This document shows, piece after piece, positions 25,270 through 63,685 of a stretch of DNA of 64,000 nucleotides (position 1 is the stretch's first letter; every line of letters begins with the position of its first letter). The notes under the pieces are model-generated. The model searched no databases, had not been told where the DNA came from, and saw only the letters and a list, made by a program, of their open reading frames with translations. Origin of the DNA: a virus; the IMG/VR virus record IMGVR_UViG_3300045988_073134; one strand, given 5' to 3'. A program made the position numbers and the translations under genes.

Positions 25270-25306
25270 ACATATATAGTATAGTAAATCTCATCTATTT
25301 ACTAAC
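25270..25306 (-). promoter_or_regulatory. 37-bp promoter motif copy P1
   Basis: The + strand reads acatatatagtatagtaaatctcatctatttactaac. It abuts the RBS of 25078..25254 and contains the stop codon of 25306..27201. Confidence 0.5.
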
Positions 25307-27723: not shown

Positions 27724-27760
27724 ACATATATAGTATAGAAAATTAGTTGTTTTTACTAAT
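27724..27760 (-). promoter_or_regulatory. 37-bp promoter motif copy P2
   Basis: The + strand reads acatatatagtatagaaaattagttgtttttactaat (variant last base). It lies between the portal gene and 27263..27694. Confidence 0.5.
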
Positions 27761-34384: not shown

Positions 34385-34421
34385 ACATATATAGTATAGA
34401 AATAATGCTCAATTTACTAAG
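34385..34421 (-). promoter_or_regulatory. 37-bp promoter motif copy P3
   Basis: The + strand reads acatatatagtatagaaataatgctcaatttactaag. Confidence 0.5.
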
Positions 34422-36897: not shown

Positions 36898-37098
36898 TTA
36901 CTCCACCTCACCTTTACTTAATATATATTGCATATATGCCAACCTACAGTCCGCCGTGTCGTATTGTGCTAGGGGGCAATCTTTGCAGCCCCTAGTTTTA
37001 CCATCATACATACTATCACAAAATAATTTAACTCTGTCTGTCAAGTCTGCCACTAATTCTCTATCACTTTTACTTTTTCTTCGGCTCATACATTCCAC
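36898..37098 (-). CDS. Cys-rich small protein
   Basis: 66 aa with CDSMYDGKTRGCKDCPLAQYDTADC. Its start overlaps the end of thyX. Confidence 0.4.
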   Translation of the reverse strand: MECMSRRKSKSDRELVADLTDRVKLFCDSMYDGKTRGCKDCPLAQYDTADCRLAYMQYILSKGEVE

Positions 37099-37762
37099 AC
37101 CCTTTCATCTCTGGACAATAACCTAACTTCTTACATTGTGGTACTAATAACTCTTTGTATCTCGGCTCAACTGCCACTACTTCTTTTACCATTTCTTGTA
37201 CTAAATAATGTATTGGTAATTCAGCTCTATTACATAATCTTACATTAGCTAAATGTATAAGACCTTCAATGTTTACTGCAAAACTACAAGCACTTGCTAT
37301 TCCTATTGGTACAAAAGTTCTTGCTATCTCGTTTGCACGTTCTTTATCAACTCCTGCCTGCTTCATCTTTTCAATTGTTAATTGATAACAAGTGGCTGCA
37401 TATTCTTCAGTTAAAAAATGGTCTCTAACTAGTAGAGGGTTTTTTCTTATCTCAGGAGCTGCGTATACATCCATTCTATCTTTTGTAACATATCTTAAAG
37501 ATTGAACATTTTTAACTACTCCTACCTCATGTCTTACTAGTTGGTCAATTGTAAAACGTGGAACTCTTTGTAAGTCAAATACAAAATATAGATGTCTGCT
37601 ACCGCTTAAATGTCCACTCTTAAGACAATGTAGTCCTACTTTTTCCGCCTGCTCTTTTGGTGTGTCATAACATACACAAGCAAATTCTCCATGTTTCTTG
37701 ATAAATTGTGTTACCTCATCTTTATTAACTAAAGTTACTTGAAAATTATTTTCTCCAAACAT
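37070..37762 (-). CDS. thyX: Flavin-dependent thymidylate synthase
   Basis: The ThyX signature RHEVGVVKNVQSLRYV (RH..x..S.RY) is present in a 230-aa protein. Confidence 0.8.
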   Translation of the reverse strand: MFGENNFQVTLVNKDEVTQFIKKHGEFACVCYDTPKEQAEKVGLHCLKSGHLSGSRHLYFVFDLQRVPRFTIDQLVRHEVGVVKNVQSLRYVTKDRMDVYAAPEIRKNPLLVRDHFLTEEYAATCYQLTIEKMKQAGVDKERANEIARTFVPIGIASACSFAVNIEGLIHLANVRLCNRAELPIHYLVQEMVKEVVAVEPRYKELLVPQCKKLGYCPEMKGCGMYEPKKK

Positions 37763-40501: not shown

Positions 40502-41502
40502 AAAATAATCAACTCGCTTTCAATCAAATTTTTAGGATTCTGCTCATATTTTATCTTGTCTAATAAGTTATTTACTCCGTCTAATATATCTACTAAGTCA
40601 TATTTTGAAGTATTAGTTGCTATGTGGATACACTGTCTCATTATGTCAGTTGGTATCATTGTTAGTTCTTTATTTCTTGTTATGTTCAGCTTACATAGGT
40701 CTAGTACAAACTTATTTAAATCTTTTACAAATAGTTTTAAGTCCTTGCCGTCTCTGTATATACTGTCTATTATTTGTATTGGCTCATCTGCTTGTTTATT
40801 TATAATACCTTGTACTATCTTTAATAGATGTTCATAGTTAGTAATACCTAGACAATCTAATACAGCTTGTAATGTAATATCAGTTGTGTAACCAAGTACT
40901 GTATCTAGTTTCATTATGGCATCTCTCATTCCACCGTCGGCCAACTTAGCTATATACTCCAATGCCTCTATGTCATAAGTTATTTTTCCCTCTTGTTGTA
41001 ATATATATTTCAATCTTTGTACTATCTCAAACTGAGGAATACGTTTAAAGTCAAATCTTTGTAGTCTGCTCAATATAGTTGCAGGTATTTTATGAGGGTC
41101 AGTAGTACATAGTATGAATATAACTCCTTTTGGTGGTTCTTCTAATACCTTTAATAGTGCATTAAATGCACCAATGCTTAACATGTGCACCTCGTCTATT
41201 ATATATACCTTGTATTTACTATCCAGGCTCTTCATTCTACAGTCGTCAATTATACTACGTATATTATCAACCCCGTTGTTACTGGCACCGTCTATTTCAA
41301 TTGGTTTTCCTTTACCACCATTTACATCACTTGCAAATATTCTTGCACTCGTAGTTTTCCCAGTACCACTTGAGCCACAAAATAGATAAGCCTGTTTTAT
41401 CTCACCAGTTTGTAATTGATTACTTAATACCTTTTTCACATTATCTTGACACACTACATCCTCAAAATGTTGTGGTCTATATTTAACAGCTAAATTCATC
41501 AT
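40489..41502 (-). CDS. dnaX: DNA polymerase III gamma/tau-like clamp-loader ATPase
   Basis: KYRPQHFEDVVCQ, Walker A GSSGTGKTT, IIDEVHML, NALLKVLEEPP and ILSRLQRF. ATG 41502 has RBS GGGAGGA at 41511-41517. Confidence 0.8.
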   Translation of the reverse strand: MMNLAVKYRPQHFEDVVCQDNVKKVLSNQLQTGEIKQAYLFCGSSGTGKTTSARIFASDVNGGKGKPIEIDGASNNGVDNIRSIIDDCRMKSLDSKYKVYIIDEVHMLSIGAFNALLKVLEEPPKGVIFILCTTDPHKIPATILSRLQRFDFKRIPQFEIVQRLKYILQQEGKITYDIEALEYIAKLADGGMRDAIMKLDTVLGYTTDITLQAVLDCLGITNYEHLLKIVQGIINKQADEPIQIIDSIYRDGKDLKLFVKDLNKFVLDLCKLNITRNKELTMIPTDIMRQCIHIATNTSKYDLVDILDGVNNLLDKIKYEQNPKNLIESELIILCLK

Positions 41503-42001
41503 ATAATATATCCTCCCTTTGTATATGTTTATAAGTTTCATAATAATAACAACTTATTATAGTACTTTCCTTTATTTCTGGAAATAAATTACATACTTCA
41601 AATCTACTTAATCCAGCTAACCTAAGGCGTCTAATTAAAATAACCTGGTCATCTGTTAATTTACAATTACCACTTTTACCTCGTTGATACCCATGTTTAT
41701 ATGAATGCTGTGTATTATGGGCTATTGTACACCATTCCAAATTACTTACAGTATTATCCAATTTATTACCATTTATATGATTAACACAAGGATAATTATT
41801 GGCATTGGGTAAAAACGCTTCGGCTACTAATCTATGTACTCTTTTATAATAACGTTTATAGTTAACACATAAACATATTTCCTCATAACCACTAGACCCT
41901 ATAACAGTACTCATTATTTTATTATACTTATTTTTTATACGTCCTTTATTACTTACATAATAAATCCGTCCTTGTATATTAAAAGGTCTCCACTCCTCCA
42001 T
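41483..42001 (-). CDS. HNH_3/NUMOD4-type homing endonuclease
   Basis: WRPF...YYVSNKGRIKN (NUMOD4-like) and VNHINGNKLDNTVSNLEWCT (HNH_3-like). It overlaps both neighbours. Confidence 0.7.
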   Translation of the reverse strand: MEEWRPFNIQGRIYYVSNKGRIKNKYNKIMSTVIGSSGYEEICLCVNYKRYYKRVHRLVAEAFLPNANNYPCVNHINGNKLDNTVSNLEWCTIAHNTQHSYKHGYQRGKSGNCKLTDDQVILIRRLRLAGLSRFEVCNLFPEIKESTIISCYYYETYKHIQREDILYDEFSC

Positions 42002-42345: not shown

Positions 42346-42382
42346 CTATATATAGTATAGGAGGTATCTCTTATTCGCTAAC
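42346..42382 (-). promoter_or_regulatory. 37-bp promoter motif copy P5 (variant -35-like block GTTAGCGAA)
   Basis: The + strand reads ctatatatagtataggaggtatctcttattcgctaac. It overlaps the 9-5-9 palindrome cctcctata-tatag-tataggagg at 42342-42364. Confidence 0.45.
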
Positions 42383-42997
42383 TTGGTCTTTAACTTTTTT
42401 AAAAAAATCTTTTACTACTCTTGATACATAAGCAGGTGATACACTGTACTGATATGCTATGTATGTACCTTTTATGCCACACAGATAATCTGCTATTATA
42501 GCACGTTGTTTGTCATTCTTCACGTTCTTTAATTCTTCTCTAATAATTTCTTTTAACTCACGTACTAATGCACTAAGCTCTACATCTTCTTTACTTTCCA
42601 AATAATTCTCTAATGATGTGTATCTAATATGACCATGATGTTTGAGTTGTATATATCCATCTATGGATAATATCTTATATATATTTTGTTCACCATCTGT
42701 AGTATATCTATTATGTTTGTCTATTCTATTTCTGTACTGTCTTAATTCTCTTTTTATTGAGGGATATGCAAAAGTTGTGAATAGTGTACCATATGAAGGG
42801 TCATAATGGTCTACACACTTCATTATACACTGCCATGCGACCTGGTACAGCTCATCTCTATCATTGTATAATTTATATGGTTTTAATAGGGAATATACCA
42901 TATTGTCTATGTACTGTGGTAATTCGTTTATCGCCTCTTTATCTCCGTTTTTATATCTCATAACAATTTCCTGGCACTTATTTCCATTATTACTCAT
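42371..42997 (-). CDS. Sigma-70-family factor (regions 2 and 4)
   Basis: DELYQVAWQCIMKCVDHYDPSYGTLFTTFAYPSIKRELRQY is region 2-like. The C-terminal IAYQYSVSPAYVSRVVKDFFKKV is a region 4-like HTH. Confidence 0.65.
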   Translation of the reverse strand: MSNNGNKCQEIVMRYKNGDKEAINELPQYIDNMVYSLLKPYKLYNDRDELYQVAWQCIMKCVDHYDPSYGTLFTTFAYPSIKRELRQYRNRIDKHNRYTTDGEQNIYKILSIDGYIQLKHHGHIRYTSLENYLESKEDVELSALVRELKEIIREELKNVKNDKQRAIIADYLCGIKGTYIAYQYSVSPAYVSRVVKDFFKKVKDQVSE

Positions 42998-44157: not shown

Positions 44158-44634
44158 TTAATACATCTCCTTATTAGTTTCTTGGTATTCTTTGTATAGT
44201 TCTCTTACTTTGTCTCTAGATTTAGGGTCATGCTCCACGGGAACCACTTCTCTATTCTTACAATCTCCTTTTATAAAATCATATATAAAATCATCTCTAA
44301 AACCTATTTCTTCAGCATCTTTTACATCACCAGCATATATCACTTTATCCAAGTTAGCCCATATTATTGCAGCCATACACATTGGACAAGGATACCCAGT
44401 TGCATATAGAGTATATCCTGTCAAATCAAAAGTATTTAGTATCTTACACGCAGTTCTTATAGCACATATCTCAGCATGAGCAGTTGGGTCATTATTACCT
44501 AATACATGATTACTATCTACACAAATTATTTCTCCAGTTTTACTATTTACTATAGCAGCTCCAAAGGGACCTCCTATTCCTTTACTCATAGTCATTTTAG
44601 CTTGTTTAATTCCTAAATCCATTGGTTTACTCAT
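44158..44634 (-). CDS. CDA-fold zinc deaminase, closest by eye to guanine deaminase (GuaD type) rather than dCMP deaminase
   Basis: GGPFGAAIV, NDPTAHAEICAIR, YPCPMCMAAIIWA, KVIYA and AEEIGFRDDFIYDF all parallel B. subtilis GuaD as I recall it. ATG 44634 has RBS AAGGAGTG. The track start at 44643 is a GTG. Confidence 0.6.
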   Translation of the reverse strand: MSKPMDLGIKQAKMTMSKGIGGPFGAAIVNSKTGEIICVDSNHVLGNNDPTAHAEICAIRTACKILNTFDLTGYTLYATGYPCPMCMAAIIWANLDKVIYAGDVKDAEEIGFRDDFIYDFIKGDCKNREVVPVEHDPKSRDKVRELYKEYQETNKEMY

Positions 44635-44664
44635 ACTTATCACTCCTTACAGTTTATTTATCTT

Positions 44665-44701
44665 ACATATATAGTATAGAAAAAGTGGGTGATTTACTAA
44701 C
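44665..44701 (-). promoter_or_regulatory. 37-bp promoter motif copy P6
   Basis: The + strand reads acatatatagtatagaaaaagtgggtgatttactaac. Confidence 0.55.
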
Positions 44702-44714: not shown

Positions 44715-45278
44715 TTATTTACCAGTAGTATATTTAAAAATATATCCACCTGTAGAGTTCCATACACCATTACATACATCCACAATATACTGTCGTTTAA
44801 TACCTGTTTGTTTGGAGGTTTCACCTGCATTAATAAACGTTTTAACGTATTGTCCTTGTTTGGTATACATCTCTACGGGTTTTAAATCGCGTTCCCAACG
44901 TTTTTTACTCATATTTGATAAATGTTCTTTACTACTATAATCTCTGTTCCCACATTCTAAGGCGTGTATATTATTATGTTGTACCGTACACCATTCTAAA
45001 TTTTCTACTCGATTATCATCTCTTATACTATTAATATGATTAACTACGGGCAGATTATTTGGGTTAGGTATAAAGGTCATTGCAACTAATCTATGCACTT
45101 GGTAGTAATAACATTTACCTTCCTTATATAAATTTACTTTTAAATAACCATCCTTACTATATGGCAAGTGCATCCAATGTTTTCGTTTAACACCATATAT
45201 TTTCCCATCTCTTGTTATTTTATATAGACCTTCAAAACCAGGTATATCATATAATTGATTATCGATTCGTAGTTCCAT
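44715..45278 (-). CDS. HNH_3/NUMOD4-type homing endonuclease
   Basis: IPGFEGLYKITRDGKIYG and VNHINSIRDDNRVENLEWCT. ATG 45278 has RBS AGAGG. It overlaps the 3' end of dut. Confidence 0.7.
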   Translation of the reverse strand: MELRIDNQLYDIPGFEGLYKITRDGKIYGVKRKHWMHLPYSKDGYLKVNLYKEGKCYYYQVHRLVAMTFIPNPNNLPVVNHINSIRDDNRVENLEWCTVQHNNIHALECGNRDYSSKEHLSNMSKKRWERDLKPVEMYTKQGQYVKTFINAGETSKQTGIKRQYIVDVCNGVWNSTGGYIFKYTTGK

Positions 45279-45717
45279 AACCGCCTCTATCTGGGTTGCC
45301 AAGCTCATCCACCTCCTCTATGTCTAAAGGAGTACTTTTTTTCACACTTATCTGAACTAATCTATCACCTTTTTTAAATGCTCCATATCTAGTACTATAA
45401 AACATTGCTAACCATTCATCATTATCTCCACAATACGTATCATCAACTAATCCCATGCTATTAGTAAGTAATAGACCAGTATTTTTAAAGGTGCTACTAC
45501 GTGGTAGTATATACCCCTCGTAGCCTTTTCCCATGTCCATTGCAAATCCTAAATTGACTACTATTATATCTCCAGGTGAGAACCTTATTATATTACCTGT
45601 AGGTTCCACACCATTCACACTTGCAGTACGTACATAACAGTCATACCAATTACCATTTTTACTTTGTGGAGCTTTACCTCCTTCAAATAATCTTACTTTT
45701 ACTTTTTTATTTGCCAT
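45259..45717 (-). CDS. dut: dUTPase (trimeric type)
   Basis: GYILPRSS, GLVDDTYCGDNDEW and C-terminal DRGGYGTT match dUTPase motifs. Confidence 0.75.
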   Translation of the reverse strand: MANKKVKVRLFEGGKAPQSKNGNWYDCYVRTASVNGVEPTGNIIRFSPGDIIVVNLGFAMDMGKGYEGYILPRSSTFKNTGLLLTNSMGLVDDTYCGDNDEWLAMFYSTRYGAFKKGDRLVQISVKKSTPLDIEEVDELGNPDRGGYGTTNR

Positions 45718-47480: not shown

Positions 47481-48539
47481 CTATTCTTCATCGGCAGTTG
47501 CCAACAACATTATACTATCTTTAGTTTGTAGTTTAAGTGTTTCCTCTGCCCCAAATTCTATAGTTACATTAGGTTCATCTACTGCACTAAATAAGTCCTT
47601 CATATAAGCGCTATTTACACTGATAATAAATGGCTCTGATAAATCTATCGGCTTAGTATATTCAATCACCTCTAGGGACTTACTAGAAGTTGATATGACC
47701 ATATTAGTTTCACTAAATACTAAATCTATAATACCTTTATCGTATATACCTATAAATAAATCTAATCTATCTAATGCTTGTAAAACTTGCTTAACGTCTA
47801 CTTCACAAGTATGAGGATAATTACTAGTCAATAATGGAAATACATCGGGATACTCATCTGCTCCCTCTTGTAAGGCTCCAGTAATAGTTATATTTTGTCC
47901 TACCGCTCTCAATGTTGAGCAATCTTTATCTACCATAAATTTTATGTTCTCAACATCTATTGATTGTAATAAGTTTGCTAATGTTGGAGGTATTAATAAT
48001 TCTATTTCTTCTAAATCTTTACCGTCTAACTCAGTACTATATACTTTTATTGCATCAGCAGTAACTATCTCACTATCTCTTACTAAGTAACTAAATAATA
48101 CACCATCTGTTGGTACATTACTCTTAGCTTTAGCGCCACTAGTTATTGCATTACTTAAAGTTGTATAAGTTATAGTAAATTCCTTATCAACATCTATGTC
48201 TAAAGTTGGGTAAACTTCATCATTAACTATTTCAACTTTGTAATTACCATTACCTTTTACTTCTAAGTAGTTATCTGTCAATTTAAGTGTCACTGTATCT
48301 TTAGTAGTTTTATTAATTAATTTACTAAATTGGTCAGCTTTTACTATAACTGACATGTTCTCATCACATTCTGTTGGGTGATTAATTGTTATGAAGTTTA
48401 TGCCGTCTGTTGCTCTCAATGATAATCCTTCTACACTAAAATCTAACTCATAGTAATTAGTTATTTCTAATATTTTACTTGGTTTACAACTACTTACCGC
48501 TTTCAACATATCTTTTAATATACTTGTATTTACTTTCAT
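47481..48539 (-). CDS. dnaN: DNA polymerase III beta-like sliding clamp
   Basis: 352 aa with DnaN-like periodicity: ILKDMLKAVSS...LRATDGINF, EYPDVFPLL and VKQVLQALDRLDLF. Confidence 0.6.
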   Translation of the reverse strand: MKVNTSILKDMLKAVSSCKPSKILEITNYYELDFSVEGLSLRATDGINFITINHPTECDENMSVIVKADQFSKLINKTTKDTVTLKLTDNYLEVKGNGNYKVEIVNDEVYPTLDIDVDKEFTITYTTLSNAITSGAKAKSNVPTDGVLFSYLVRDSEIVTADAIKVYSTELDGKDLEEIELLIPPTLANLLQSIDVENIKFMVDKDCSTLRAVGQNITITGALQEGADEYPDVFPLLTSNYPHTCEVDVKQVLQALDRLDLFIGIYDKGIIDLVFSETNMVISTSSKSLEVIEYTKPIDLSEPFIISVNSAYMKDLFSAVDEPNVTIEFGAEETLKLQTKDSIMLLATADEE

Positions 48540-48550: not shown

Positions 48551-49462
48551 CTAAAATAATCTTTTTTGGTATCTGTTATTACCTTTATATTTATAGTTAT
48601 CTGCCCAATCTTTAAAGTAATTTATATTGTATAATTGTCTACTCTCTTGGTTTTCCATACATTGCTCTATTGATGTTCCATATGAAACGCATTGCTCATC
48701 TATTTGTCTCTGTACTAACTGTGGTAATTTATTGTAATGACTGACTTTGTGTTGTACTTTTGGTGATACACATATTCTACCATATTTGGTACATAACTCT
48801 CCATTTATTGCAGCCATTAACCACGTTGTACTGTCTGCACTCTCAAAGGGATAATTTTCTAATATGTCTAAGTTAGTCATCCCAAACGCATGAACTTTTA
48901 CTTTTGGATTCTTACTTTGTTGTATAATCTTAAAACATTGTTTATACCAATCTTCTTTTACTGAGCTGGCCAATCCAACAGTTCCACCAAGTCCTATATA
49001 TGGAATATGTTTCCCATGAAACGTTGCCTCTAACATATTTTGTAGATGTCTAAAGTCTTCTCCAATATGAAATACTGGTAATAATTTGTCTTTGTCTCTT
49101 ACTTGCTCTCTCATATATAAATAATTGTGCCATGACTTCTCAGGCGATTCACGTTGCTCTAATAATGTAGGTTTTCTTTTTAACTCACCTGGAATGTCAT
49201 CTACACTTGCAAACAAAGTAAATTTGTCTGTATTATCATTTATAAACTTTATATAATCTTCTACGTCTATATGTTTATTTTTACTCCAAGCACTGTATGC
49301 TCCCGAGTCTATAAATAACTTATTATTGGACATTACTTCTAAAAACTTCATTATAACTTTTCTGTCATTTATTTGTGAAAATAGTACATCACATTCTCTT
49401 TTTATTATTATGTCATTCTGAGTATTTACTTTACTTCCCGCTAAATATAAGTTAAAACTCAT
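48551..49462 (-). CDS. dpdA: DpdA-like DNA guanine transglycosylase, paralogue 2 (TGT fold)
   Basis: LFIDSGAYSAW, GLGGTVG, HAFGMT and ESADSTTW parallel the TGT motifs DSGGFQ, LxGVG and DxFDS. It lies downstream of the preQ0 genes. Confidence 0.6.
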   Translation of the reverse strand: MSFNLYLAGSKVNTQNDIIIKRECDVLFSQINDRKVIMKFLEVMSNNKLFIDSGAYSAWSKNKHIDVEDYIKFINDNTDKFTLFASVDDIPGELKRKPTLLEQRESPEKSWHNYLYMREQVRDKDKLLPVFHIGEDFRHLQNMLEATFHGKHIPYIGLGGTVGLASSVKEDWYKQCFKIIQQSKNPKVKVHAFGMTNLDILENYPFESADSTTWLMAAINGELCTKYGRICVSPKVQHKVSHYNKLPQLVQRQIDEQCVSYGTSIEQCMENQESRQLYNINYFKDWADNYKYKGNNRYQKRLF

Positions 49463-49474
49463 TCAGCTCACCTC

Positions 49475-50398
49475 CTAAAATAATCTCTTTTGAAACCTAT
49501 TGTTACCTTTGTATTTATACTTATCTGCCCAGTTTTGTATATAATGAATATTAACAACAGTTCTCAAGTTAGTATTTTCTACACATTCTTCTAATGTCAA
49601 ATTACATTCAGCTATTTGTGCTTCCACTTGTTTCTGTACATCTTTTGGTAATTTTAATATGTGGTTAGGTCTGTGTTGAGCAGAATTAGATAATCCTACA
49701 ACACCATATTTTGTAAGAATATTTCCATTAATTGCCAACATCATCCAGGTAGTACTATCAGCACTTGTAAATGGATAATTCTCTAATATATTCAAACTAG
49801 TCATTCCAAAAGCATGTGTTTTTATATTTGGGTTATTACTCTCTTTTATTACTTTAAAACATTGTTTATACCAATTACTCTTTACTGAACTTGGTCTAAC
49901 TCCAACTGTTCCTCCTAACGCTATATATGGTATATGTTTTCCGTCTAATATTGTATTACACATATTACTCAGATGTTTAAAATCTTCTCCCATATGAAAA
50001 ACTGGTAATAATTTGTCGGGTTCTTTAACTCGCTCTCTCATATATAAATAATTTTCCCACGATAATAATGGAGATTGTTGTTTCTCTTTTAGTGTTGGTG
50101 TTCTCGTTAATTCTCCTGGTATATTATCTACACTAGCAAACAATGTTAACTCATTGGTATTCTCATTTAAATAATTTATATACTCATCTGTATCAATACT
50201 TTTACCTCTTGACCAGGCACTATATGCTCCACTATCTACAAATACTTTTGTACCTGGTTTTTCTTTAGCTTGTTGTAACCATAATTTTCCTCTACTCCTA
50301 TCACGTAGTTGAGAATATAATCTACAACTTCCTCTTGCCATCATGGCTTCATCAGCTTCAATATCTCTCACTCCTGCGAAGTATAAATCAAAACTCAT
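49475..50398 (-). CDS. dpdA: DpdA-like DNA guanine transglycosylase, paralogue 1 (TGT fold)
   Basis: VFVDSGAYSAW, ALGGTVG, HAFGMT and TSADSTTW. It is roughly half to 60 percent identical to the next gene by eye and shares its C-terminus KYKGNNR(F/Y)QKRLF. Confidence 0.6.
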   Translation of the reverse strand: MSFDLYFAGVRDIEADEAMMARGSCRLYSQLRDRSRGKLWLQQAKEKPGTKVFVDSGAYSAWSRGKSIDTDEYINYLNENTNELTLFASVDNIPGELTRTPTLKEKQQSPLLSWENYLYMRERVKEPDKLLPVFHMGEDFKHLSNMCNTILDGKHIPYIALGGTVGVRPSSVKSNWYKQCFKVIKESNNPNIKTHAFGMTSLNILENYPFTSADSTTWMMLAINGNILTKYGVVGLSNSAQHRPNHILKLPKDVQKQVEAQIAECNLTLEECVENTNLRTVVNIHYIQNWADKYKYKGNNRFQKRLF

Positions 50399-50419
50399 GT
50401 TATCAACTCCTTTTTAATT

Positions 50420-50456
50420 ACATATATAGTATATAAAAAGTGGCCAGTTTACTAAC
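50420..50456 (-). promoter_or_regulatory. 37-bp promoter motif copy P7
   Basis: The + strand reads acatatatagtatataaaaagtggccagtttactaac. It lies upstream of dpdA paralogue 1. Confidence 0.55.
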
Positions 50457-50463
50457 TGACCAC
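50435..50463 (-). terminator. Terminator hairpin embedded in P7, after folE
   Basis: The minus strand reads GTGGTCAG-TTAGTAAA-CTGGCCAC followed by TTTTTATATACT, with one mismatch. Confidence 0.5.
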
Positions 50464-50471
50464 TTAATTTT

Positions 50472-51050
50472 TTATCTAAATAATTCATATGCTTCTTGTC
50501 TTAATTCAATATTAGTTTTAAATCTACCTCTTATAGTTGCAGTTCTTGTTTTAGCTCCACGAGATTTAATTCCTCTTGCAGTCATACAACTATGTTCACC
50601 TTCTACTACTACAATTATATCTTCTGTATCTAATATCATCTGTAGTATATCAGCAATATCTTCTCCAATACGTTCTTGTAATTGTAGTCTCTTAGCTACC
50701 ATGTCTGCCACTCTAGCAATTTTACTAAGTCCTATAACCTTTCCGTTTGCTATGTATCCAACACTGACAGTCATATTATACATTAATGCCAAGTGGTGTT
50801 CACAATAACTAAAAATTGGTATTTTAGATACAGTTACAAGGTCATCTGCTCCCTCATCATAAAAACATTTATCGAACATCTCAGCTATTTCTTCATTTGT
50901 ATAGTTCATACCTTCAAATACTTCTTGATACATTTTAGCGACTCTTTTAGGAGTCTCTTTTAGTCCTGCTCTGTCTGGGTCATCTCCTAACGCCACTAAT
51001 ATATCTCTTACTGCACTTTCAATTTTCTTAGTATCTATCATATTATACAC
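50472..51050 (-). CDS. folE: GTP cyclohydrolase I
   Basis: [34 protein letters not shown] and [11 protein letters not shown]. Confidence 0.85.
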
Positions 51051-51699
51051 CTCTCATATTTGGATTCCATATTATTTTATGCAACTGAACTTGTACTTTT
51101 ACATTGTTTAATCTATTATCCAGTATATACTCAACTAATTCTTTTGGTTCTATTTTACCAAATACTGGTGATACATAAGGCTGAGCTTTACATTCGCTCT
51201 CCTCTAGTATATATTCCATTTTCTCTAATTCATTGTAATTACTAACTACAAATTTAATTACATCTTTAGGTTGAAGTAATTTTAAATTCCACAACTTCAT
51301 TTTATCTTCCATGCCACTACTTGCACATTTATAATCCATTGTGAATATTACTTTACTATTATACTTGTATTCCCAAAACTTATCTAAATCAACTGCTCCA
51401 TTAGTTTCTATATTTACTTCAACATCATTAGCTACTAAAGAGTTGATTAAATCTTTTACATTCTCATGTATTAATGGTTCTCCTCCAGTTAATGTTACAC
51501 GAGGAACTCCGTATGTTAATACCTCATCTAATATATCCATTAATGGCATTTCAGTATATTCACTATTTTCACAACTATAACGAGTATCACAGTAACTACA
51601 TTTTAAATTACAGCCATACAGTCTTATAAAGACTGTAGGCAACCCAGTTCTAACTCCTTCTCCATCTATACTAAGAAATATTTCATTTACTTTATACAT
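51043..51699 (-). CDS. queE: 7-carboxy-7-deazaguanine synthase (radical SAM)
   Basis: [42 protein letters not shown] 51699 lies just after the queD stop. The track start at 51765 is inside queD. Confidence 0.85.
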
Positions 51700-51700
51700 T

Positions 51701-52075
51701 TTATCTTCCACAATTACATCCCCCTTTAACTTCATATATTGCAGTGTTATGAGCACTTTCCTCAACGCTTACTCTAGTACATTTTACATATATGCCATCA
51801 AACATACCAGTTAATTGGTCAGCTATCCATTTAGCAATATTCTCAGCAGTTGGATTAACTCCAACAACATCATTTATATACGCATGGTCTAATTGGTTTA
51901 CAACTCTTTTTATATGAGTAAAATCCATTACCATTCCATACTCAGTTAATTCTTCACTCTCTATTTGAACTTCTATATTCCAGTTATGACCATGTAGGTT
52001 ACTACATTTACTTTCATAAGGTAAATCTAATTTATGAGCTCCTGCAACTTCCATTTTCTTTATTATTTTATACAT
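51701..52075 (-). CDS. queD: 6-carboxy-5,6,7,8-tetrahydropterin synthase
   Basis: 124 aa with SKCSNLHGHNW and the PTS-fold size. Confidence 0.8.
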   Translation of the reverse strand: MYKIIKKMEVAGAHKLDLPYESKCSNLHGHNWNIEVQIESEELTEYGMVMDFTHIKRVVNQLDHAYINDVVGVNPTAENIAKWIADQLTGMFDGIYVKCTRVSVEESAHNTAIYEVKGGCNCGR

Positions 52076-52076
52076 A

Positions 52077-52811
52077 TTATTTTTCCTCCCAATCTATTTT
52101 TATTTTATATGGTACAGGGTCAACTGCTCCATTTGCCTTAAAGGCATTTATTCTATCTATACAAGTACCACAAGTACCACAACAAGGTCTTTCACCTTCA
52201 TAACAGCTATGAGTTAATTCGTATGGCACTTTTAAATCTAATCCCAAACGTACAATATCTTTTTTAGTCATATTTACAAAAGGAGCATGAACTCTAACTT
52301 TGTCATAAGTACCAATTGATATAGCTTTATCCATAGTCTCAGTAAATTCAGGACTACAGTCAGCATAGGCTTCACCGGCTGCATCATCTACATGAGCTCC
52401 TAAATATATAGTAGCAATTGTGTCTGGTTTGTCTTCAACTAGACTCATCGCTATGGCAGCTACACTACTTAATAATAATCCATTTCTAAATGGTACATAA
52501 GTTCTTACCATTCCCTCTCCATCTTTGGCTATTTGGTCTGCATAACTCTCATGTCTAATTTCTTCTGTACTATTAGATAATAGAGAACAGTTACTATATG
52601 CAAATATTTTACTTAAATCTATTTCTATATGTTTTACATCATAATACTCAGCTATATCTTTTGCACATTTCAATTCAATACTGTGCTTTTGTCCATAATA
52701 CGCACTAACTGTAACAACATTCTCTTTTCCATATAAATCTACTGCTAATCCCACTGCTGTTGTACTATCTACACCACCACTATTTAATACTACTGCAATT
52801 TCTTTACTCAT
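52077..52811 (-). CDS. queC: 7-cyano-7-deazaguanine (preQ0) synthase
   Basis: PP-loop VVLNSGGVDSTT and C-terminal zinc motif SCYEGERPCCGTCGTCIDR. Confidence 0.85.
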   Translation of the reverse strand: MSKEIAVVLNSGGVDSTTAVGLAVDLYGKENVVTVSAYYGQKHSIELKCAKDIAEYYDVKHIEIDLSKIFAYSNCSLLSNSTEEIRHESYADQIAKDGEGMVRTYVPFRNGLLLSSVAAIAMSLVEDKPDTIATIYLGAHVDDAAGEAYADCSPEFTETMDKAISIGTYDKVRVHAPFVNMTKKDIVRLGLDLKVPYELTHSCYEGERPCCGTCGTCIDRINAFKANGAVDPVPYKIKIDWEEK

Positions 52812-52842: not shown

Positions 52843-52879
52843 ACATATATAGTATATAAAAAACTCGGCTTTTACTAAC
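52843..52879 (-). promoter_or_regulatory. 37-bp promoter motif copy P8
   Basis: The + strand reads acatatatagtatataaaaaactcggcttttactaac. It lies upstream of queC. Confidence 0.55.
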
Positions 52880-52886
52880 CGAGTTT
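52857..52886 (-). terminator. Terminator hairpin embedded in P8, after polA
   Basis: The minus strand reads AAACTCGG-TTAGTAAAAG-CCGAGTTT followed by TTTATATACT. Confidence 0.55.
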
Positions 52887-52896
52887 TAAATATTTA

Positions 52897-55251
52897 TTAA
52901 ATTTCTATTCCCTCTCCATACCATCTATACGTACATTCAATATCAGTTTTCATTGGTATTTCAAATTTTCCGTCTACTACGTGTACCATAATGTACTCTA
53001 ATATATCTCTCACCTCTTTGGCATTCTCTTTTGGACATACTCCTAATACTTCATCATGCACCGGTATGATTAATTTATATCCCAATTCTTGTAGTCTTTT
53101 ATTGTCATGAATTCTTATCATTGCTATCTTTGTCATATCAGCCGCACTACCTTGTATTATACTGTTAACACATTGTCTCTGAGCATCTGCTATATACCCA
53201 CCATTATCAACTATTTTATAACCTTCATCTTTGGCCAGTTGTTTAATCTTCTCTTTTGCCTCTCTACCAAAGGCTCTATTCATTAATTTAAGATATTTGA
53301 AGTAAACTTCGTCACTCACCTCTGTATTAGCAGTTCCAGTAAAATCTAATGGATTAAATGTATCAACTAAGTTAGGATTCTCAACTGTTATTTCAATTGG
53401 GTCTAACTGCATATTTGGTAATCTTCTTTTTCTTCCCCACGCAGTCTCTACAAAACCATACTCTCTCGCATTCTCTTGAGCAAAGTCTACAAATCCTTTT
53501 ACTTTTGGGAACTGATTGTAAAAATCGTTAATAACTTGCTGTGCCTCCTCTTTACTGATATTCATCTGCTCAGCTATACTTGTTACACCTCTACCATACA
53601 TAATTCCTAGTAATATAGGTTTTACTGAACTTCTACGTTGTTTCCCTTCAGGGTTAACTGTACCGTCAGGTCTGAACTCTTTACACTCATCATATGGCAT
53701 ATTATACAACTTACTGGCTATAGTACTATATAAATCTTTACCGTCTAAATATGCTTGTATCATATGTTCGTCCTGACTCATATGTGCCAAACATCTCGGT
53801 TCTTGTTGTGAGAAGTCACCACCAATTATTACATTACCTGGGCCTGCAACAAACATCTGTCTAATATCATGTCCAGCATCTATTACAGTGCCATCACTTA
53901 ATTTTTTAGTCCTACTTGGTATATTTTGTAAGTTTGGGTCACTACTACTAAATCTACCAGTTTTAGCTCCATACTGATTAAAGTTTGCGTGTAACTTACC
54001 AGTTCTTTTGCTTATATGTTCAGGAATAGCATCAATATAAGTACTTAATAGTTTACTCATACCTCTATACTCTAAAATACTGTTAACTAATGGATGATGT
54101 AATTGTTTTAGCTGCTCTTCACCAACACTACGTTGTCCTTTCGGTGGCTCTAATTTTAAGACATCGTAGAATAATATTACTAACTGTTGATTACTTCCTA
54201 TATTAATATTTACTTCTCCAAACTCACTTATTTTGTTATATTTATCAGGATGTTTTACTCTTAAGTCATTGAATACTCCTTGTTTATCAAGTTCAGATAC
54301 TTGTGTATTGAACTCATTAAGTGCATTATCCATATACGTAGTATATCGCTCTTTAAGTTGTTGTGCTAAGTTTGTATCTATGTCTACTCCTTGAGCCTCC
54401 ATATCAAATACTACTTCTATTAATGGCATTTCTATATTTCTAAATACATCTGCCACTCTCTCAAGTCCTTTTTTATAACAGTATTTTCCGTCTCTGTCCA
54501 AATACTCACGTTGAAATTCATATAATTCAAAAGTCATTATAGGGTCAAAGGCTGCATACATATAGCCAACATCGGGAGGTATTTTGTTGAACTCAATACC
54601 ATTGAACAATTCACCAAATTTCCCTACCTCAGCACTCTCTCCTGTACAATACTTTTGCCATAATACTTTTAAGCCATGAGGTTCATTTTCATTAAGTAAA
54701 TACCCTCCAATTAATGTATCCCAGTATGGCACTATTTTTACTCCTATCATCCAATATAGTATATGCATATCGAACTTAGCATTATGGAGTACAAATCTAA
54801 TATTATTATCTGACCAAGATTGTATTAATTTCCTAACTACTTCAATAGATACATTACTTTGTAATTCCATATTTGTCATATAACTTATATGTCCTACTGG
54901 AATATATATCCCTTTTTCATATGGAGTATAAAGACATATACCAGCTACTTTTCCATCTATTCTATCAAGTCCGTTTGTCTCAGTATCTAATGCTACTATG
55001 CCATTGGCTACTACTTTTTTATCAAACTGTCTTAATCTATCTTCACTAGTTACTAATTCCATTCTATCCAGTCTGTCAGCAAATATTTTAGTAGACATCA
55101 TCTTTGCATATTCTACTTTATCCTTCATTGTCTTAGGTACTATTGATGTTACTGGCGCTCTTTTATTTTTCTTTTTATTCAACACTTCTAACGCTTTTTT
55201 ATTCGCTTCTTTATTATTACAACGACTAAATGTATCTTTAAACAAACTCAT
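52897..55251 (-). CDS. polA: Family A DNA polymerase with a 3'-5' exonuclease domain
   Basis: Exo I ALDTETNGL. Motif A GDFSQQEPRCLA. Motif B KPILLGIMYGRG. Motif C IPVHDEVL. Confidence 0.9.
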   Translation of the reverse strand: MSLFKDTFSRCNNKEANKKALEVLNKKKNKRAPVTSIVPKTMKDKVEYAKMMSTKIFADRLDRMELVTSEDRLRQFDKKVVANGIVALDTETNGLDRIDGKVAGICLYTPYEKGIYIPVGHISYMTNMELQSNVSIEVVRKLIQSWSDNNIRFVLHNAKFDMHILYWMIGVKIVPYWDTLIGGYLLNENEPHGLKVLWQKYCTGESAEVGKFGELFNGIEFNKIPPDVGYMYAAFDPIMTFELYEFQREYLDRDGKYCYKKGLERVADVFRNIEMPLIEVVFDMEAQGVDIDTNLAQQLKERYTTYMDNALNEFNTQVSELDKQGVFNDLRVKHPDKYNKISEFGEVNINIGSNQQLVILFYDVLKLEPPKGQRSVGEEQLKQLHHPLVNSILEYRGMSKLLSTYIDAIPEHISKRTGKLHANFNQYGAKTGRFSSSDPNLQNIPSRTKKLSDGTVIDAGHDIRQMFVAGPGNVIIGGDFSQQEPRCLAHMSQDEHMIQAYLDGKDLYSTIASKLYNMPYDECKEFRPDGTVNPEGKQRRSSVKPILLGIMYGRGVTSIAEQMNISKEEAQQVINDFYNQFPKVKGFVDFAQENAREYGFVETAWGRKRRLPNMQLDPIEITVENPNLVDTFNPLDFTGTANTEVSDEVYFKYLKLMNRAFGREAKEKIKQLAKDEGYKIVDNGGYIADAQRQCVNSIIQGSAADMTKIAMIRIHDNKRLQELGYKLIIPVHDEVLGVCPKENAKEVRDILEYIMVHVVDGKFEIPMKTDIECTYRWYGEGIEI

Positions 55252-56035: not shown

Positions 56036-56072
56036 ACATATATAGTATAGAAAACCAGGTTATTTTACTAAC
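56036..56072 (-). promoter_or_regulatory. 37-bp promoter motif copy P9
   Basis: The + strand reads acatatatagtatagaaaaccaggttattttactaac. Confidence 0.55.
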
Positions 56073-56880: not shown

Positions 56881-59031
56881 TTAATCACATTTTGTATATC
56901 CACATTCAGGACAACTATTACATCCACCAGTGAAGTTTAATTTGGCTCCACATTCAGGACAATTATTTACTGTCATTTCTTCTCGCTTAAGTTCTCCAGT
57001 ACTCATCTCAATGTGGTCTTCAATATATCTTTGTTTTAATTCCATTAATGCTCTTCCTATTGCACTTGGACAACATTTACCAGCACTGGTATCTTTTTTC
57101 AACGCAGTTCTAACAGAATAAGATGGACAAGCAGGAACACTATTTAATTGGTCGCATATACCTTCTACTGTTCCACCTAATTTACCTGCATAACTTATCA
57201 TTCTACTAAGTCCTATCATGAAACTATTACATCCACCTTGACTACCCTTATCTAAGAAGATATGACATAGCTGACCTGTTTTCTTATGGAAGTATACTGA
57301 CATCCATAAACTACCACATCCAGTTGTTAGTTGAGTACCATATGCTACACAGTTATCAATAGATGTGTCAGTTATTGGTATGTGTATAGTATTCTCTGTT
57401 GTTTGTTCTTTTGGTTTATCTACTACTAATACACCTTCCTTTTTACAACCGGCTCTATAAATTGTTAACCCTTTACAACCTTCTTCCCATGCAGCTTGGT
57501 ATAAATCTCTTATAGTTTCAACAGTTGTATCATTAGTAACGTTAACAGTACTGCTTATACTAGCATCAATAAATCTTTGCCATTGTGCTTGTATTGTAAC
57601 TCTGTCAAACGGGTCTATATTTTGAGCAGTGGCTATAGTACTTACATTTTCCTCAGATATTACTCCTGTATCAATCATCTTTTGTATTATTGGAGTATAT
57701 ACATTATAATATATATCTTCTCCATGTAGGGATTGAGTTTTTCTTGTATAATGTGTAGCAAATATTGGTTCTACTCCACCACTAACTCCTAACATTGTAC
57801 TTATGCTTCCAGTTGGCGCTATTGTGAATAATTGAGAATTTCTAAGGCCATAACGTTTTATCAAATCAATTGTATTATCTTCAATAACATTACTATTTCT
57901 TAATACGGTTATAAAAGTACTTGCTAGTATTAAACGTAGGTCACATTCAGGGAAGGATTCAGTATCCATAGCTAGTAGAGCACTTTCCTCTAATCCTGTA
58001 TTAACTAAAGTTTTACCTATTATCTCAATTATATCAAGTGCTCTTGATGAGTCATATTGACATCTCATCTTTAGTAACATATCAGCAAACCCCATAATAC
58101 CAAGTCCTATTTGTCTCCAATCACGTACGCTGTTTCTTTGTTCTTCTAATGGATGTAATTCTAGTCCTTCATCTAACACATCATTTAAGGCACGTATCGC
58201 TATTCTTACTGCACTTTTGAACTCAGGTATATTAAAGGCAGCTTTATCTGTAAATGGGTTTTCTACAAATTCACTTAAGTTTAATGCTCCTAATAGACAA
58301 CTACCACCTGCCGGTAATGGTTCCTCAGCACAAGGATTTACTCCTGCATATTCAAAATATGCAAATTCATCTAATAAGTTATAACGTTTTATTGTGTCCC
58401 AGTACAGTATGCCAGGCTCTGCCCAGTCATAATTATTTAATGCGATATGGTCTAATATATCAGGTTTATTTTCCATATCATCATCACTCATACGTACTGA
58501 GATATTACATTTTTCTAATTTGTTATCTAGTTTAGCATCTATAAAGTCATGTATATCAGGATGACTACTGTCCATACTTATCATCAAGGCTCCACGTCTC
58601 CCATTCTGACCAATAACTCTCGCAGTTTGTTCCAAGACATCCATAAATGAGACTGCACCACTAGTTGTAAGAGCTGCATTATGTACCTCTGCTCCTTTTG
58701 GTCTTAATGTACTAATATCAACACCACATCCACCACCATAGCTAAATGTACGGGCTAACTTCATTGCAGCCTCATATATACCCTCGATACTATCATGTGG
58801 AGGTTCTATTACATAACAATTACTGTAAGTTACACCTCTGTCTGTAATACCTCTATTACTAAGTATTCTACCACCAAATAAAAATTTCTTATCCACTATC
58901 AGTTGAGCAACTTGTGTATCTCCACCACTAACTCTCTCTAGCCAGTCTTCAAAACTTTCACCATTGCGTTGATATTTTTTCTTCCAAATATCTTCTCCTA
59001 ACTCACTTAATTTCCAATCTTGTAGTTCCAT
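56881..59031 (-). CDS. nrdJ: Class II (adenosylcobalamin-dependent) ribonucleotide reductase
   Basis: 716 aa in a single chain. N-terminal WKKKYQRNGESFEDWLERV, GGGCGVDISTLRPKGA, NPCAEEPL, and a C-terminal CPECG...CNSCPECG zinc ribbon. Confidence 0.75.
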   Translation of the reverse strand: MELQDWKLSELGEDIWKKKYQRNGESFEDWLERVSGGDTQVAQLIVDKKFLFGGRILSNRGITDRGVTYSNCYVIEPPHDSIEGIYEAAMKLARTFSYGGGCGVDISTLRPKGAEVHNAALTTSGAVSFMDVLEQTARVIGQNGRRGALMISMDSSHPDIHDFIDAKLDNKLEKCNISVRMSDDDMENKPDILDHIALNNYDWAEPGILYWDTIKRYNLLDEFAYFEYAGVNPCAEEPLPAGGSCLLGALNLSEFVENPFTDKAAFNIPEFKSAVRIAIRALNDVLDEGLELHPLEEQRNSVRDWRQIGLGIMGFADMLLKMRCQYDSSRALDIIEIIGKTLVNTGLEESALLAMDTESFPECDLRLILASTFITVLRNSNVIEDNTIDLIKRYGLRNSQLFTIAPTGSISTMLGVSGGVEPIFATHYTRKTQSLHGEDIYYNVYTPIIQKMIDTGVISEENVSTIATAQNIDPFDRVTIQAQWQRFIDASISSTVNVTNDTTVETIRDLYQAAWEEGCKGLTIYRAGCKKEGVLVVDKPKEQTTENTIHIPITDTSIDNCVAYGTQLTTGCGSLWMSVYFHKKTGQLCHIFLDKGSQGGCNSFMIGLSRMISYAGKLGGTVEGICDQLNSVPACPSYSVRTALKKDTSAGKCCPSAIGRALMELKQRYIEDHIEMSTGELKREEMTVNNCPECGAKLNFTGGCNSCPECGYTKCD

Positions 59032-61187: not shown

Positions 61188-61241
61188 AAAAAAGGGGAGT
61201 TATATTATGAGTAGAAGAATGTGCCTCCACATTTCCTCTAC
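61147..61241 (-). ncRNA. Candidate ~95-nt small RNA or attenuator (P11 to terminator)
   Basis: It lies between a full motif copy and a terminator and has a 5' hairpin AATGTG-GAGG-CACATT. The only ORF is a 10-codon MWRHILLLII whose ATG is 1 nt from a GGA-rich patch. Confidence 0.3.
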
Positions 61242-61276
61242 ATATATAGTATAGAAAAAAGTGCCATTTTACTAAC
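61240..61276 (-). promoter_or_regulatory. 37-bp promoter motif copy P11
   Basis: The + strand reads acatatatagtatagaaaaaagtgccattttactaac. It contains the dnaB stop codon. Confidence 0.5.
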
Positions 61277-63377: not shown

Positions 63378-63434
63378 AAAAAACAAATAGATATTAAGGG
63401 TTGAGTATATAAGGAGGTTTCCCATATTCCTTAC
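63341..63434 (-). ncRNA. Candidate ~95-nt small RNA or attenuator (P13 to terminator)
   Basis: The architecture is the same as 61147-61241. The 5' end AAGGAATATGGGAAACCTCC resembles AGAGGAAATGTGGAGGCAC of the other unit. There is no credible ORF. Confidence 0.3.
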
Positions 63435-63469
63435 ATATATAGTATAGAAAAAATCATTGTTTTACTAAC
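63433..63469 (-). promoter_or_regulatory. 37-bp promoter motif copy P13
   Basis: The + strand reads acatatatagtatagaaaaaatcattgttttactaac. Confidence 0.5.
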
Positions 63470-63512: not shown

Positions 63513-63650
63513 ATATTTGGGGATTGTTAATAATTTCTTATTAGTTGGTTATATGAAGTTAATCACCTACTCTCTTATTATACACTATTGGGTCATATAA
63601 GAAAATAATAAAAATTAAAATAATATAAAAATAATTTAATAATAAGTTAC
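63476..63650 (-). ncRNA. Candidate ~175-nt non-coding transcript (P14 to terminator), 5' half almost pure A/T
   Basis: There is no ORF longer than 3 codons with an RBS. The span 63601-63648 is almost pure A/T with one G. An alternative reading is an origin or DNA-unwinding region. Confidence 0.25.
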
Positions 63651-63685
63651 ATATATAGTATAGAAAAATTGTGTAGTTTACTAAC
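63649..63685 (-). promoter_or_regulatory. 37-bp promoter motif copy P14
   Basis: The + strand reads acatatatagtatagaaaaattgtgtagtttactaac. It contains the stop codon of 63681..63953. Confidence 0.5.

Follow-up and report, generated by a model that had tools for sequence, protein, structure and literature searches.

A long-maintained pair of intact DpdA-type transglycosylases in the predicted dPreQ0 DNA-modification module of a human-gut phage

Background

Modification of DNA with 7-deazaguanines is a major route by which phages get past restriction enzymes and Cas9, and it is poorly understood how the DNA-guanine transglycosylase DpdA chooses its guanines and why replacement spans <1% to 100%. 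The locus described here raises the question of what a phage would do with two such enzymes. It lies in IMG/VR virus record IMGVR_UViG_3300045988_073134, of which a stretch of 64,000 nucleotides was analysed (the window, in which all genes are on the minus strand and to which positions refer unless another contig is named). Six minus-strand open reading frames (ORFs) between 48551 and 52811, whose limits had been given in an earlier note made without database searches and agree with the window ORF coordinates, encode QueC, QueD, QueE and FolE, enzymes of the pathway to 7-cyano-7-deazaguanine (preQ0), and two DpdA-like proteins, here called DpdAa and DpdAb.

We consider it likely that the que and dpdA genes together form a phage 7-deazaguanine DNA-modification module, arranged as two transcription units with a single promoter type and yielding 2'-deoxy-preQ0 (dPreQ0) as its product. 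As predicted from its genes, the module is of a well-known anti-restriction type, while what is unusual about it is a long-maintained, recombining pair of intact DpdAs. A very common human-gut phage lineage thereby provides a natural experiment, in which two co-expressed DpdAs share the same predicted substrate and have divergent putative DNA-binding regions, and in which close relatives with one copy, another allele combination or chimeras of the two genes make up a natural comparison set. Should the module prove ordinary, it would still represent another dPreQ0 phage, from a gut Bacillota host group with few described.

Results and discussion

Two transglycosylases of the phage DpdA1 type

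DpdAa (49475-50398, minus strand, 307 aa) and DpdAb (48551-49462, minus strand, 303 aa) both contain the motifs DSGAYS, HAFGMT and SADSTTW, from which the earlier note had recognised them as members of the tRNA-guanine transglycosylase (TGT) fold. That assignment of the two ~305-aa proteins is confirmed by a protein-family match, by homology to Streptococcus phage Dp-1, by a profile alignment to a solved DpdA structure and by model comparison with Foldseek. PHROG 887 ('queuine tRNA-ribosyltransferase') matches both proteins (E 5e-55 and 7e-58). Both are 42–44% identical over their full length to gp07 of Dp-1, the closest characterised DpdA, and to its homologue in Bacillus phage Flasso, and they are ~31% identical, over 77–84% of the protein, to the DpdAs of CAjan-type and 9g-type phages. 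Such full-length similarity to experimentally linked members is what places a protein in the DpdA1 subfamily.

An exhaustive search returned 3,793 DpdA relatives. Seven columns are invariant in an alignment of 82 of them (D55, D91, H135, H195, G198, S212 and D214 in DpdAa numbering), and D55, D91 and D214 are invariant across 82–84 homologues, both paralogs included. The family profile matches one informative solved structure, the DpdA of Salmonella Montevideo (PDB 7UI4, E 1.2e-3), which a phmmer search of PDB sequences with DpdAa alone did not reach, returning only noise. In the profile alignment D55 is equivalent to Asp95, Y59 to Phe99, D91 to Asp130, G162-G163 to Gly206-Gly207 and D214 to Asp256; the invariant H135 probably corresponds to His181, which lies outside the displayed alignment. 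Asp95 (acid/base) and Asp256 (nucleophile) of the Salmonella enzyme are essential by mutagenesis (PMC10164549). The key residues of DpdAa (D55, Y59, D91, H135, G162-G163-T164-V165, F197 and D214) are followed by a C-terminal tail QKRLF; DpdAb has the same catalytic and pocket residues, with D52, D88, H132 and D210 at the family-invariant positions, and ends in the same tail. AlphaFold 2 (AF2) models of the two proteins have predicted local distance difference test (pLDDT) scores of 95.9 (DpdAa) and 95.8 (DpdAb). The 50 best matches listed for the DpdAa model in the PDB are all TGTs (E down to 5.7e-9, template modelling score ~0.6), and the named best matches of the DpdAb model in a viral structure library are phage queuine tRNA-ribosyltransferases. 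Each enzyme would be expected to exchange guanine in double-stranded phage DNA for preQ0, by a double displacement with an Asp nucleophile and an Asp acid/base, as in TGT and DpdA.

Several profile searches weigh against this assignment. Neither protein matches any Pfam family at E up to 0.1, so that the match to the TGT family (PF01702) by which the earlier note had proposed to check them failed, and with 20.1 and 25.7 bits neither comes near the cut-off of 200 of the NCBIfam DpdA model NF041059; the PADLOC DpdA model gives 17.9 and 27.4 bits. Both of these models describe the bacterial bDpdA subfamily, and the Zn site that defines bDpdA (CxCx2Cx22H) is missing, as there is no CxCxxC in either sequence. 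With Salmonella DpdA the window proteins share the TIM-barrel TGT fold, the aligned Asp95, Asp130, Asp256 and Gly-Gly loop and, by inference, His181; they differ from it in being ~100 residues shorter, in lacking the Zn site and the large four-helix bundle of insertion 8 (Ins8), and in having no DpdB partner. Because the Zn motif and the large Ins8 bundle are missing, we file them as phage DpdA1 type and not as bDpdA. The bacterial enzyme is preQ0-specific and modifies <0.1% of G.

The TGT fold and the database name 'queuine tRNA-ribosyltransferase' would also suit a module that serves tRNA, through queuosine or preQ supply or through tRNA modification, and not DNA. We regard this as extremely improbable, given that the phages with the closest homologues (Dp-1, CAjan and 9g) have deazaguanines in their DNA (PMC6884629), that the Zn subdomain used by TGT on tRNA is missing, that the window has no tRNA genes and the genome no QueA, QueG, QueH or QueF, and that the genes sit inside the replication module, beside polA and the clamp gene.

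A complete set of genes from GTP to preQ0

The four genes that the earlier note had assigned to the GTP-to-preQ0 pathway encode enzymes that all exceed the curated NCBIfam equivalog cut-offs, with Pfam domains in agreement, and the motifs that it had cited are found in the translations. FolE (GTP cyclohydrolase I; 50472-51050, minus strand) matches PF01227 (E 1.3e-64) and TIGR00063 (196 bits vs 181.6) and contains CEHH and HSCMTARG. QueD (6-carboxytetrahydropterin synthase; 51701-52075, minus strand) matches PF01242 (E 2.9e-31) and TIGR03367 (95.5 bits vs 89.25) with the motif CSNLHGH (CxxxHGH), and is the sole protein of the 6-pyruvoyl-tetrahydropterin synthase fold. QueE (radical-SAM 7-carboxy-7-deazaguanine synthase; 51043-51699, minus strand) has the CxxxCxxC motif and scores 274.7 bits vs 260 for TIGR03963, in an alignment that starts from residue 24; its ORF is open to 51765, but translation probably begins from the ATG at 51699, giving 218 aa and matching the gene lengths of relatives. 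QueC (preQ0 synthase; 52077-52811, minus strand) matches PF06508 (177 bits, E 3.8e-52) and TIGR00364 (161 bits vs 150), contains the PP-loop SGGVDS and the Zn cysteines CGTCGTC, and is by Pfam a stand-alone, single-domain protein with no fused Gat/amidotransferase domain. From homology at these thresholds, FolE, QueD, QueE and QueC are predicted to convert GTP to free preQ0.

The pocket loop and the gene content point to dPreQ0

Which base the two enzymes insert was approached through the genes that are missing and through the substrate pocket. The complete genome is ~70–71 kb, and a close relative, L067, supplied the sequence of the 5.7 kb outside the window. With the Dp-1 and Flasso proteins as queries, tblastn gave no match to QueF or to the transporter QueT in the window, and Pfam showed no QueF, amidotransferase or formyltransferase among the window ORFs (non-structural ORFs of at least ~100 aa) and no QueF or tailoring enzyme in the 5.7 kb of L067. 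Over the same ORFs and the L067 remainder, none of QueF, Gat-QueC/ArcS/QueF-L, DpdL, DpdM and DpdN was found. The earlier statement that the window holds neither QueF nor an amidotransferase was upheld by tblastn, by Pfam and by the single-domain QueC.

In TGT and DpdA the 7-substituent of the base is bound by the Gly-rich β6-α6 loop, and in Salmonella DpdA the backbone NH of Met208 binds the preQ0 nitrile, while the side chain of Val209 excludes 7-aminomethyl-7-deazaguanine (preQ1) (PMC10164549). The loop reads GGMV in that preQ0 enzyme, GGMV in the DpdA of the CAjan-like phage VogelGryff (dPreQ0 having been shown for CAjan), SPAN(D) in Dp-1 gp07, which is linked to dPreQ1, and GGTV in both window proteins, for which it predicts preQ0; both have the Gly-Gly-x-Val of preQ0-specific transglycosylases. 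Because the catalytic residues align, the loop is Gly-Gly-x-Val and neither QueF nor a tailoring enzyme was found, we predict dPreQ0 as the most probable product of DpdAa and DpdAb alike. The earlier proposal of 2'-deoxy-preQ0 as the simplest product is in this way strengthened as a prediction, by the gene content of the window and the L067 remainder, by a QueC without amidotransferase and by the preQ0-type loop of both DpdAs. Such a base would shield the phage DNA from restriction and Cas nucleases.

Two of the closest known systems belong to phages. Dp-1, in whose DNA dPreQ1 makes up ~1.7% of G (PMC6884629), resembles the window phage in the neighbourhood of its gp1-gp7 cluster (que genes, dpdA, a DnaN-like clamp, a Cas4-like exonuclease and RecU) and in a C-terminal QxxLF tail; unlike the window phage, which has two DpdAs with GGTV and no QueF or QueT, it has QueF, QueT and a single DpdA with a SPAND loop. 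The Queuovirinae CAjan (Escherichia, Seuratvirus) and Pseudomonas phage iggy share with the window FolE, QueD, QueE, QueC and DpdA without QueF, the GG-x-V loop and a dpdA that adjoins a phage clamp gene. There dPreQ0 has been shown by experiment and is inserted in specific sequence motifs; CAjan and iggy differ from the window phage in having one DpdA each (~31% identical to the window's), Gram-negative hosts and que genes dispersed among small ORFs.

The association between loop and gene content was surveyed in ~100 DpdA genes from fetched loci (L094-L171; residues 158–169 in DpdAa numbering). None of the 49 genes of the LGG class is linked to QueF, and 35 of them are accompanied by QueC, QueD, QueE and FolE; the 43 genes of the SPxxD class include all 17 QueF-linked genes; and 5 of the 6 genes of the AATTD class stand with QueD, QueE and FolE but without QueC. 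A neighbour-joining tree from which the loop columns were left out requires six or more changes of class, so the association is not purely inherited, though neither is it phylogenetically independent. We suggest that the deazaguanine inserted by a DpdA may be predictable from its pocket loop by a sequence rule, with GG-x-V as the preQ0 type, SPxxD as the QueF-linked, preQ1 type, and AATTD marking loci without QueC. This rule, like the clamp-motif hypothesis for the C-terminus discussed below, reaches beyond the window locus.

The third class, G[LI]AATTD, was seen in L115:6971-12030 and also in L111, L114, L117, L118 and L122. Its cluster runs in the order DpdA, SAM methyltransferase (L115:7918-8766), a 132-aa protein, QueD, QueE, FolE and clamp, with no QueC. 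Since QueC is missing, the pathway in these loci should stop at 7-carboxy-7-deazaguanine (CDG), and they may point to dCDG or a methylated derivative, neither yet described for DpdA1-type phages.

Three points count against dPreQ0 as the final base: the phage has not been cultured and is known only from metagenomes, the link between loop and gene content is partly phylogenetic and limited by flanks of ~7 kb, and QueF could come from the host or the base could be tailored by an enzyme not recognised as such. The latter possibility can be put more generally, in that dPreQ0 would be only an intermediate, from which, or from whose precursor, an unrecognised enzyme elsewhere in the genome makes another derivative. 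New tailoring enzymes are still being discovered (PMC10516641), several window ORFs have no family assignment, and the close relative L067 encodes, in the segment outside the window and directly after its endolysin gene, an Amidoligase_2 protein (L067:16388-17191; PF12224, E 3e-43) that could in principle tailor a carboxylated substrate. No candidate is, however, linked to the que or dpdA units, other LGG-type loci share the minimal gene set, and CAjan-type phages with the same gene set contain dPreQ0, which makes a further step decidedly improbable in our judgement.

An old pair under purifying selection

DpdAa and DpdAb share 56% identity. No disrupted copy of either ORF occurs in any relative, and dN/dS (the ratio of nonsynonymous to synonymous substitution rates) is 0.05–0.25 in most comparisons, indicating purifying selection on both copies; values of 0.4–0.5 for DpdAa in the two least-diverged pairs (dS <0.01) come from too few substitutions to be reliable. 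Among 78 IMG/VR loci of the DpdA family, two-copy loci occur only in the window's own clade (11 loci). The pair recurs in the combinations (per cent identity of the a- and b-type copies) a99+b98, a72+b91, a73+b85 and a64-67+b75; the lineage with the last of these has a clamp protein of only 61% identity. We conclude that the DpdA pair is old and has been long maintained.

The differences between the two proteins, and likewise the variability across the entire family, are concentrated at residues 13–51 and 231–288, where entropy is high and a/b identity low, while the core (52–230) is conserved. In the AF2 model the chain continues after D214 as a helix, then a β-hairpin, then a small domain of helices, a topology that agrees with the layout described for Ins8 of Salmonella DpdA. 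We infer that segment 13–51 and segment 231–288 (after β8) are the counterparts of Ins1/Ins2 and Ins8, the insertions from which the Salmonella enzyme builds its DNA-binding surface. Sequence specificity of phage DpdAs is known to vary, CAjan modifying GA, GGC and GGT and iggy GA only (PMC10484667). Because the a/b differences fall in the counterparts of the DNA-binding insertions, we tentatively propose, at a little short of an even chance, that the paralogs take the same base and prefer different DNA sequence contexts, so that the pair would modify more G positions than one enzyme could and the two together would cover more of the guanines.

A different division of labour would be for the paralogs to insert different bases, one of them preQ0 and the other a second 7-deazaguanine (such as host-made preQ1, CDG or 7-amido-7-deazaguanine), giving two modifications. 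Some DpdAs are promiscuous and some phages contain several deazaguanines (PMC10516641), and pocket-loop classes do switch within the DpdA family. Against this stand the complete identity of DpdAa and DpdAb at the substrate-contact positions (D55, Y59, D91, H135, GGTV and F197) and the presence in both of the preQ1-blocking Val, and we hold two bases to be highly improbable.

Two observations argue against insertion of the same base in different contexts as the function of the pair: four relatives whose PolA is 91–94% identical (L012-L014 and L016) carry a single a-type gene, and the proposed context specificity is deduced solely from where the two proteins differ. Since close relatives manage with one DpdA, the second copy is dispensable. 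Two further loci carry one chimeric gene, P0003 (L172:4001-4924) and P0011 (L173:1676-2599), each a-type in its N-terminal half and b-type in its C-terminal half. Both chimeras are located between folE and the clamp gene, and the flanks of that in L172 are 97–99% identical to the window. They are probably products of unequal recombination between the tandem copies. That the P0003 chimera is an assembly artefact was considered and judged unlikely, because the longest exact a/b match (22 nt) ends at codon 122, before the switch, which lies between codons 127 and 136, and because a second chimera is found in another lineage; each chimera rests on a single contig.

These single-gene loci also bear on whether DpdAa and DpdAb form a heterodimer, as do eukaryotic QTRT1 and QTRT2, in which catalysis would fall to one subunit and the DNA would be held by its partner. 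TGT-family enzymes can dimerise, and the eukaryotic TGT is a heterodimer of paralogs (PMC10164549); in the window clade the genes are adjacent behind a common promoter, and the order a-then-b is conserved. Salmonella DpdA is, however, monomeric, and we down-weight an obligate heterodimer because both active sites are complete, all catalytic and pocket residues being retained as they would not be in a pseudo-enzyme partner, and because some close relatives have only an a-type gene or only one a/b chimera. Taken together, these points leave a heterodimer improbable.

The pair might instead serve as insurance, the second copy being a back-up or arms-race spare against host inhibition, or copy number might tune modification density against modification-dependent defences. 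The presence of dpdAb varies among near-identical genomes, chimeras occur, and between lineages the a-allele dS (1.1–1.65) exceeds that of the b-allele (0.48–0.64), which suggests allele replacement; where glycosylases attack deazaguanine-containing DNA, loss of DpdA function is selectively favoured (bioRxiv 10.1101/2025.10.29.685425). Long retention of the pair with purifying selection on both copies, and differences that are clustered in the counterparts of the DNA-binding insertions and not evenly spread, speak against a mere spare, and we think this account unlikely. The heterodimer, different-base and back-up accounts are all ranked below that in which two enzymes insert the same base in different contexts.

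If the latter is true, the chimeras and the relatives with one copy offer natural domain swaps with which to locate the determinants of DpdA target-motif specificity, and modification maps of the relatives would show whether the number of paralogs sets the density of modification and which segments encode motif specificity.

Tandem DpdA genes elsewhere

An initial statement that no isolate phage has two DpdAs, derived from tblastn (a single place in each of 184 records, and likewise in each of 259 when E up to 1 was allowed), was overturned by Microbacterium phage Megan (MN586020), whose tandem pair is too divergent for tblastn and was exposed by Foldseek against BFVD. Its gp2 and gp3 (L190:670-2543), annotated only as 'queuine tRNA-ribosyltransferase', are adjacent DpdA-like genes, 46% identical to each other, with complete catalytic motifs, and they adjoin genes for a QueC-like protein, QueD, QueE and FolE; the QueC-like protein, being 455 aa long, probably carries an extra domain. 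The pair is an independent duplication, differing from the window proteins in an identity to them of only ~20%, in the lack of an LF tail and in the lack of a clamp gene nearby. A literature search found no functional study of the Megan pair, and a full-text search covering the main articles (the supplementary tables of PMC10516641 fell outside it) found no paper discussing a DpdA pair of either the window or the Megan type.

A parallel of another kind is given by the α- and β-glucosyltransferases of phage T4, two enzymes of one phage that act on the same base and jointly raise counter-defence (bioRxiv 10.64898/2025.12.06.692756). They differ from the DpdAs in fold and chemistry and are not paralogs of each other.

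A related tandem-pair lineage (L092:1-1767) has a transporter of the Vut_1/YhhQ type, a preQ0/preQ1 transporter family, upstream of queC, and its QueD (303 aa) carries an N-terminal extension with helix-turn-helix and HNH endonuclease domains.

A possible clamp-binding tail

Both DpdAs end in QKRLF-COOH (C-terminal codons at 48551-48568 and 49475-49492), a tail that has an AF2 pLDDT of ~60 and is presumably disordered. Directly downstream of dpdAb lies the gene for a DnaN-like sliding clamp (47481-48539, minus strand; PF00712, E 3e-8; PF02768, E 7e-7). The bacterial β-clamp-binding pentapeptide is QL[SD]LF, and the DpdA tail resembles it. Across 99 complete ORFs of the family, 91 end in [LIM][FWLI], 52 of these in Qxx[LIM]F, and a clamp gene lies within the flank of 89. 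Among DpdAs of individual phages, an LF tail is present in all seven with a clamp gene adjoining dpdA or two small genes downstream (9g, an iggy-like phage, RHEph04, VogelGryff, Dp-1, Flasso and the window phage, with the unannotated adjoining gene of the iggy-like phage counted as a clamp) and in none of three without such a gene. The tail is strictly C-terminal in six of the seven and stops two residues short of the end in 9g. The three without are actinophage proteins, from Cracklewink and the two of Megan, which have neither a clamp gene nearby nor an LF tail.

The disordered QKRLF tail and the clamp gene adjoining dpdA led us to propose that DpdA is tethered to the clamp. The tail would dock DpdA on the β-type clamp of the phage, and we regard it as a plausible hypothesis, somewhat more likely wrong than right, that QKRLF acts as a clamp-binding motif and recruits DpdA to DNA that has just been replicated. 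Against it, position 2 of the tail is not Leu, unlike in the canonical QL[SD]LF, and the QxxLF tail is short and might bind a different partner, or might be conserved simply for structural reasons. The long-assumed clamp interaction of the T4 glucosyltransferases was not reproduced (bioRxiv 10.64898/2025.12.06.692756). In the main phage-DpdA papers the word 'clamp' does not occur. A similar sequence, QAYLF, in a clamp-loader subunit of the window phage (40489-41541) was considered as a clamp motif and rejected, as it is a conserved segment just before the Walker A loop.

A broader and more doubtful proposal is that phage DpdA1 enzymes in general are tethered to the replisome through a Qxx(L)F-COOH tail on the phage's own clamp, base exchange being coupled to replication, and that the gut clade has added to this two long-lived paralogs with one preQ0 pocket and divergent DNA-reading surfaces.

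Two transcription units with one promoter motif

In the order of transcription the locus reads polA (52897-55251, minus strand, upstream of queC), a hairpin and promoter-like motif, queC, queD, queE, folE, a second hairpin and promoter-like motif, dpdAa, dpdAb, and the genes for the DnaN-like clamp, a Cas4-like exonuclease and RecU. The promoter/terminator cassette that the earlier note had described for the dpdA pair is real: an intrinsic-terminator-like hairpin after folE (50438-50465, minus strand; 12-bp stem and T-run), kept in 10 relatives with compensatory stem changes, is followed before dpdAa by the promoter-like motif TTTATATACTATATATGT (50420-50437, minus strand), an exact copy of a motif repeated in the window. 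Another exact copy of TTTATATACTATATATGT stands before queC (52843-52860, minus strand), after a terminator-like hairpin between polA and queC (52861-52887, minus strand) that was read from the sequence and has an RNAfold energy of -13.3 kcal/mol; the loop of this hairpin, TTAGTAAA, doubles as the -35-like box of the next promoter. With the que genes and the dpdA pair each behind the same motif, they would be separate units of one promoter class.

Allowing up to 3 mismatches, TTTATATACTATATATGT has 13 matches in the window vs 2.8 expected, a number reached in 0 of 100 shuffles. Ten good copies (0–2 mismatches) are on the coding strand, each just 5' of an ORF start (minus strand, 25270-25287, 27724-27741, 34385-34402, 44665-44682, 50420-50437, 52843-52860, 56036-56053, 61240-61257, 63433-63450 and 63649-63666). 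The consensus is TTAGTAAA-N13-TTT[C/A]TATACTATATATGT, with TTAGTAAA ~13 nt upstream of the motif, and in about half of the copies the TTAGTAAA -35-like box lies within the loop of a terminator hairpin, which yields compact terminator-promoter cassettes. Promoters of the standard sigma-70 type are not enriched by a scan for them (46 sites vs 54 expected), and the motif emerged from an alignment of intergenic regions. The phage encodes its own sigma-like protein (42371-42997).

Genome context and host

The phage was found in human-gut metagenomes, including Hadza samples, and is common, with one DpdAa variant on 346 contigs and one DpdAb variant in 323 collection blocks. It is without a cultured close relative; a megablast of the module against 50,697 phage records gave no match, and the best matches of PolA are those of Dp-1 and Clostridium phage phiCTP1 (47–48%). 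A single-protein scan of genome contigs for the host found nothing, and an alignment scan of genome contigs found only relatives of at most 45% identity, in metagenome-assembled genomes of Bacilli, Clostridia, Lachnospiraceae and Mollicutes. The host is probably a member of the gut Bacillota.

By Pfam, the window further encodes DnaB, a helicase loader, primase, class II ribonucleotide reductase (RNR), dUTPase, dCMP deaminase, RecA, a sigma factor, clamp-loader subunits, ThyX, a DUF1599 protein and an N6/N4 DNA methylase, and the 5.7 kb read in L067 hold the endolysin, the Amidoligase_2 protein, an SNF2 helicase and small ORFs. The N6/N4 DNA methyltransferase would be a second DNA modification of the same phage; this enzyme, the DUF1599 'nucleotide modification associated domain 1' protein, ThyX and dCMP deaminase are encoded at 32013-32936, 35419-35922, 37070-37762 and 44158-44643. 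Two HNH/NUMOD homing-endonuclease genes lie within the replication module (41483-42001 and 44715-45308), and their presence and position differ between relatives. The class II RNR of the relative L031 (L031:1-2428) contains an HNH-domain intein, whereas that of the window (56881-59031) is free of it.

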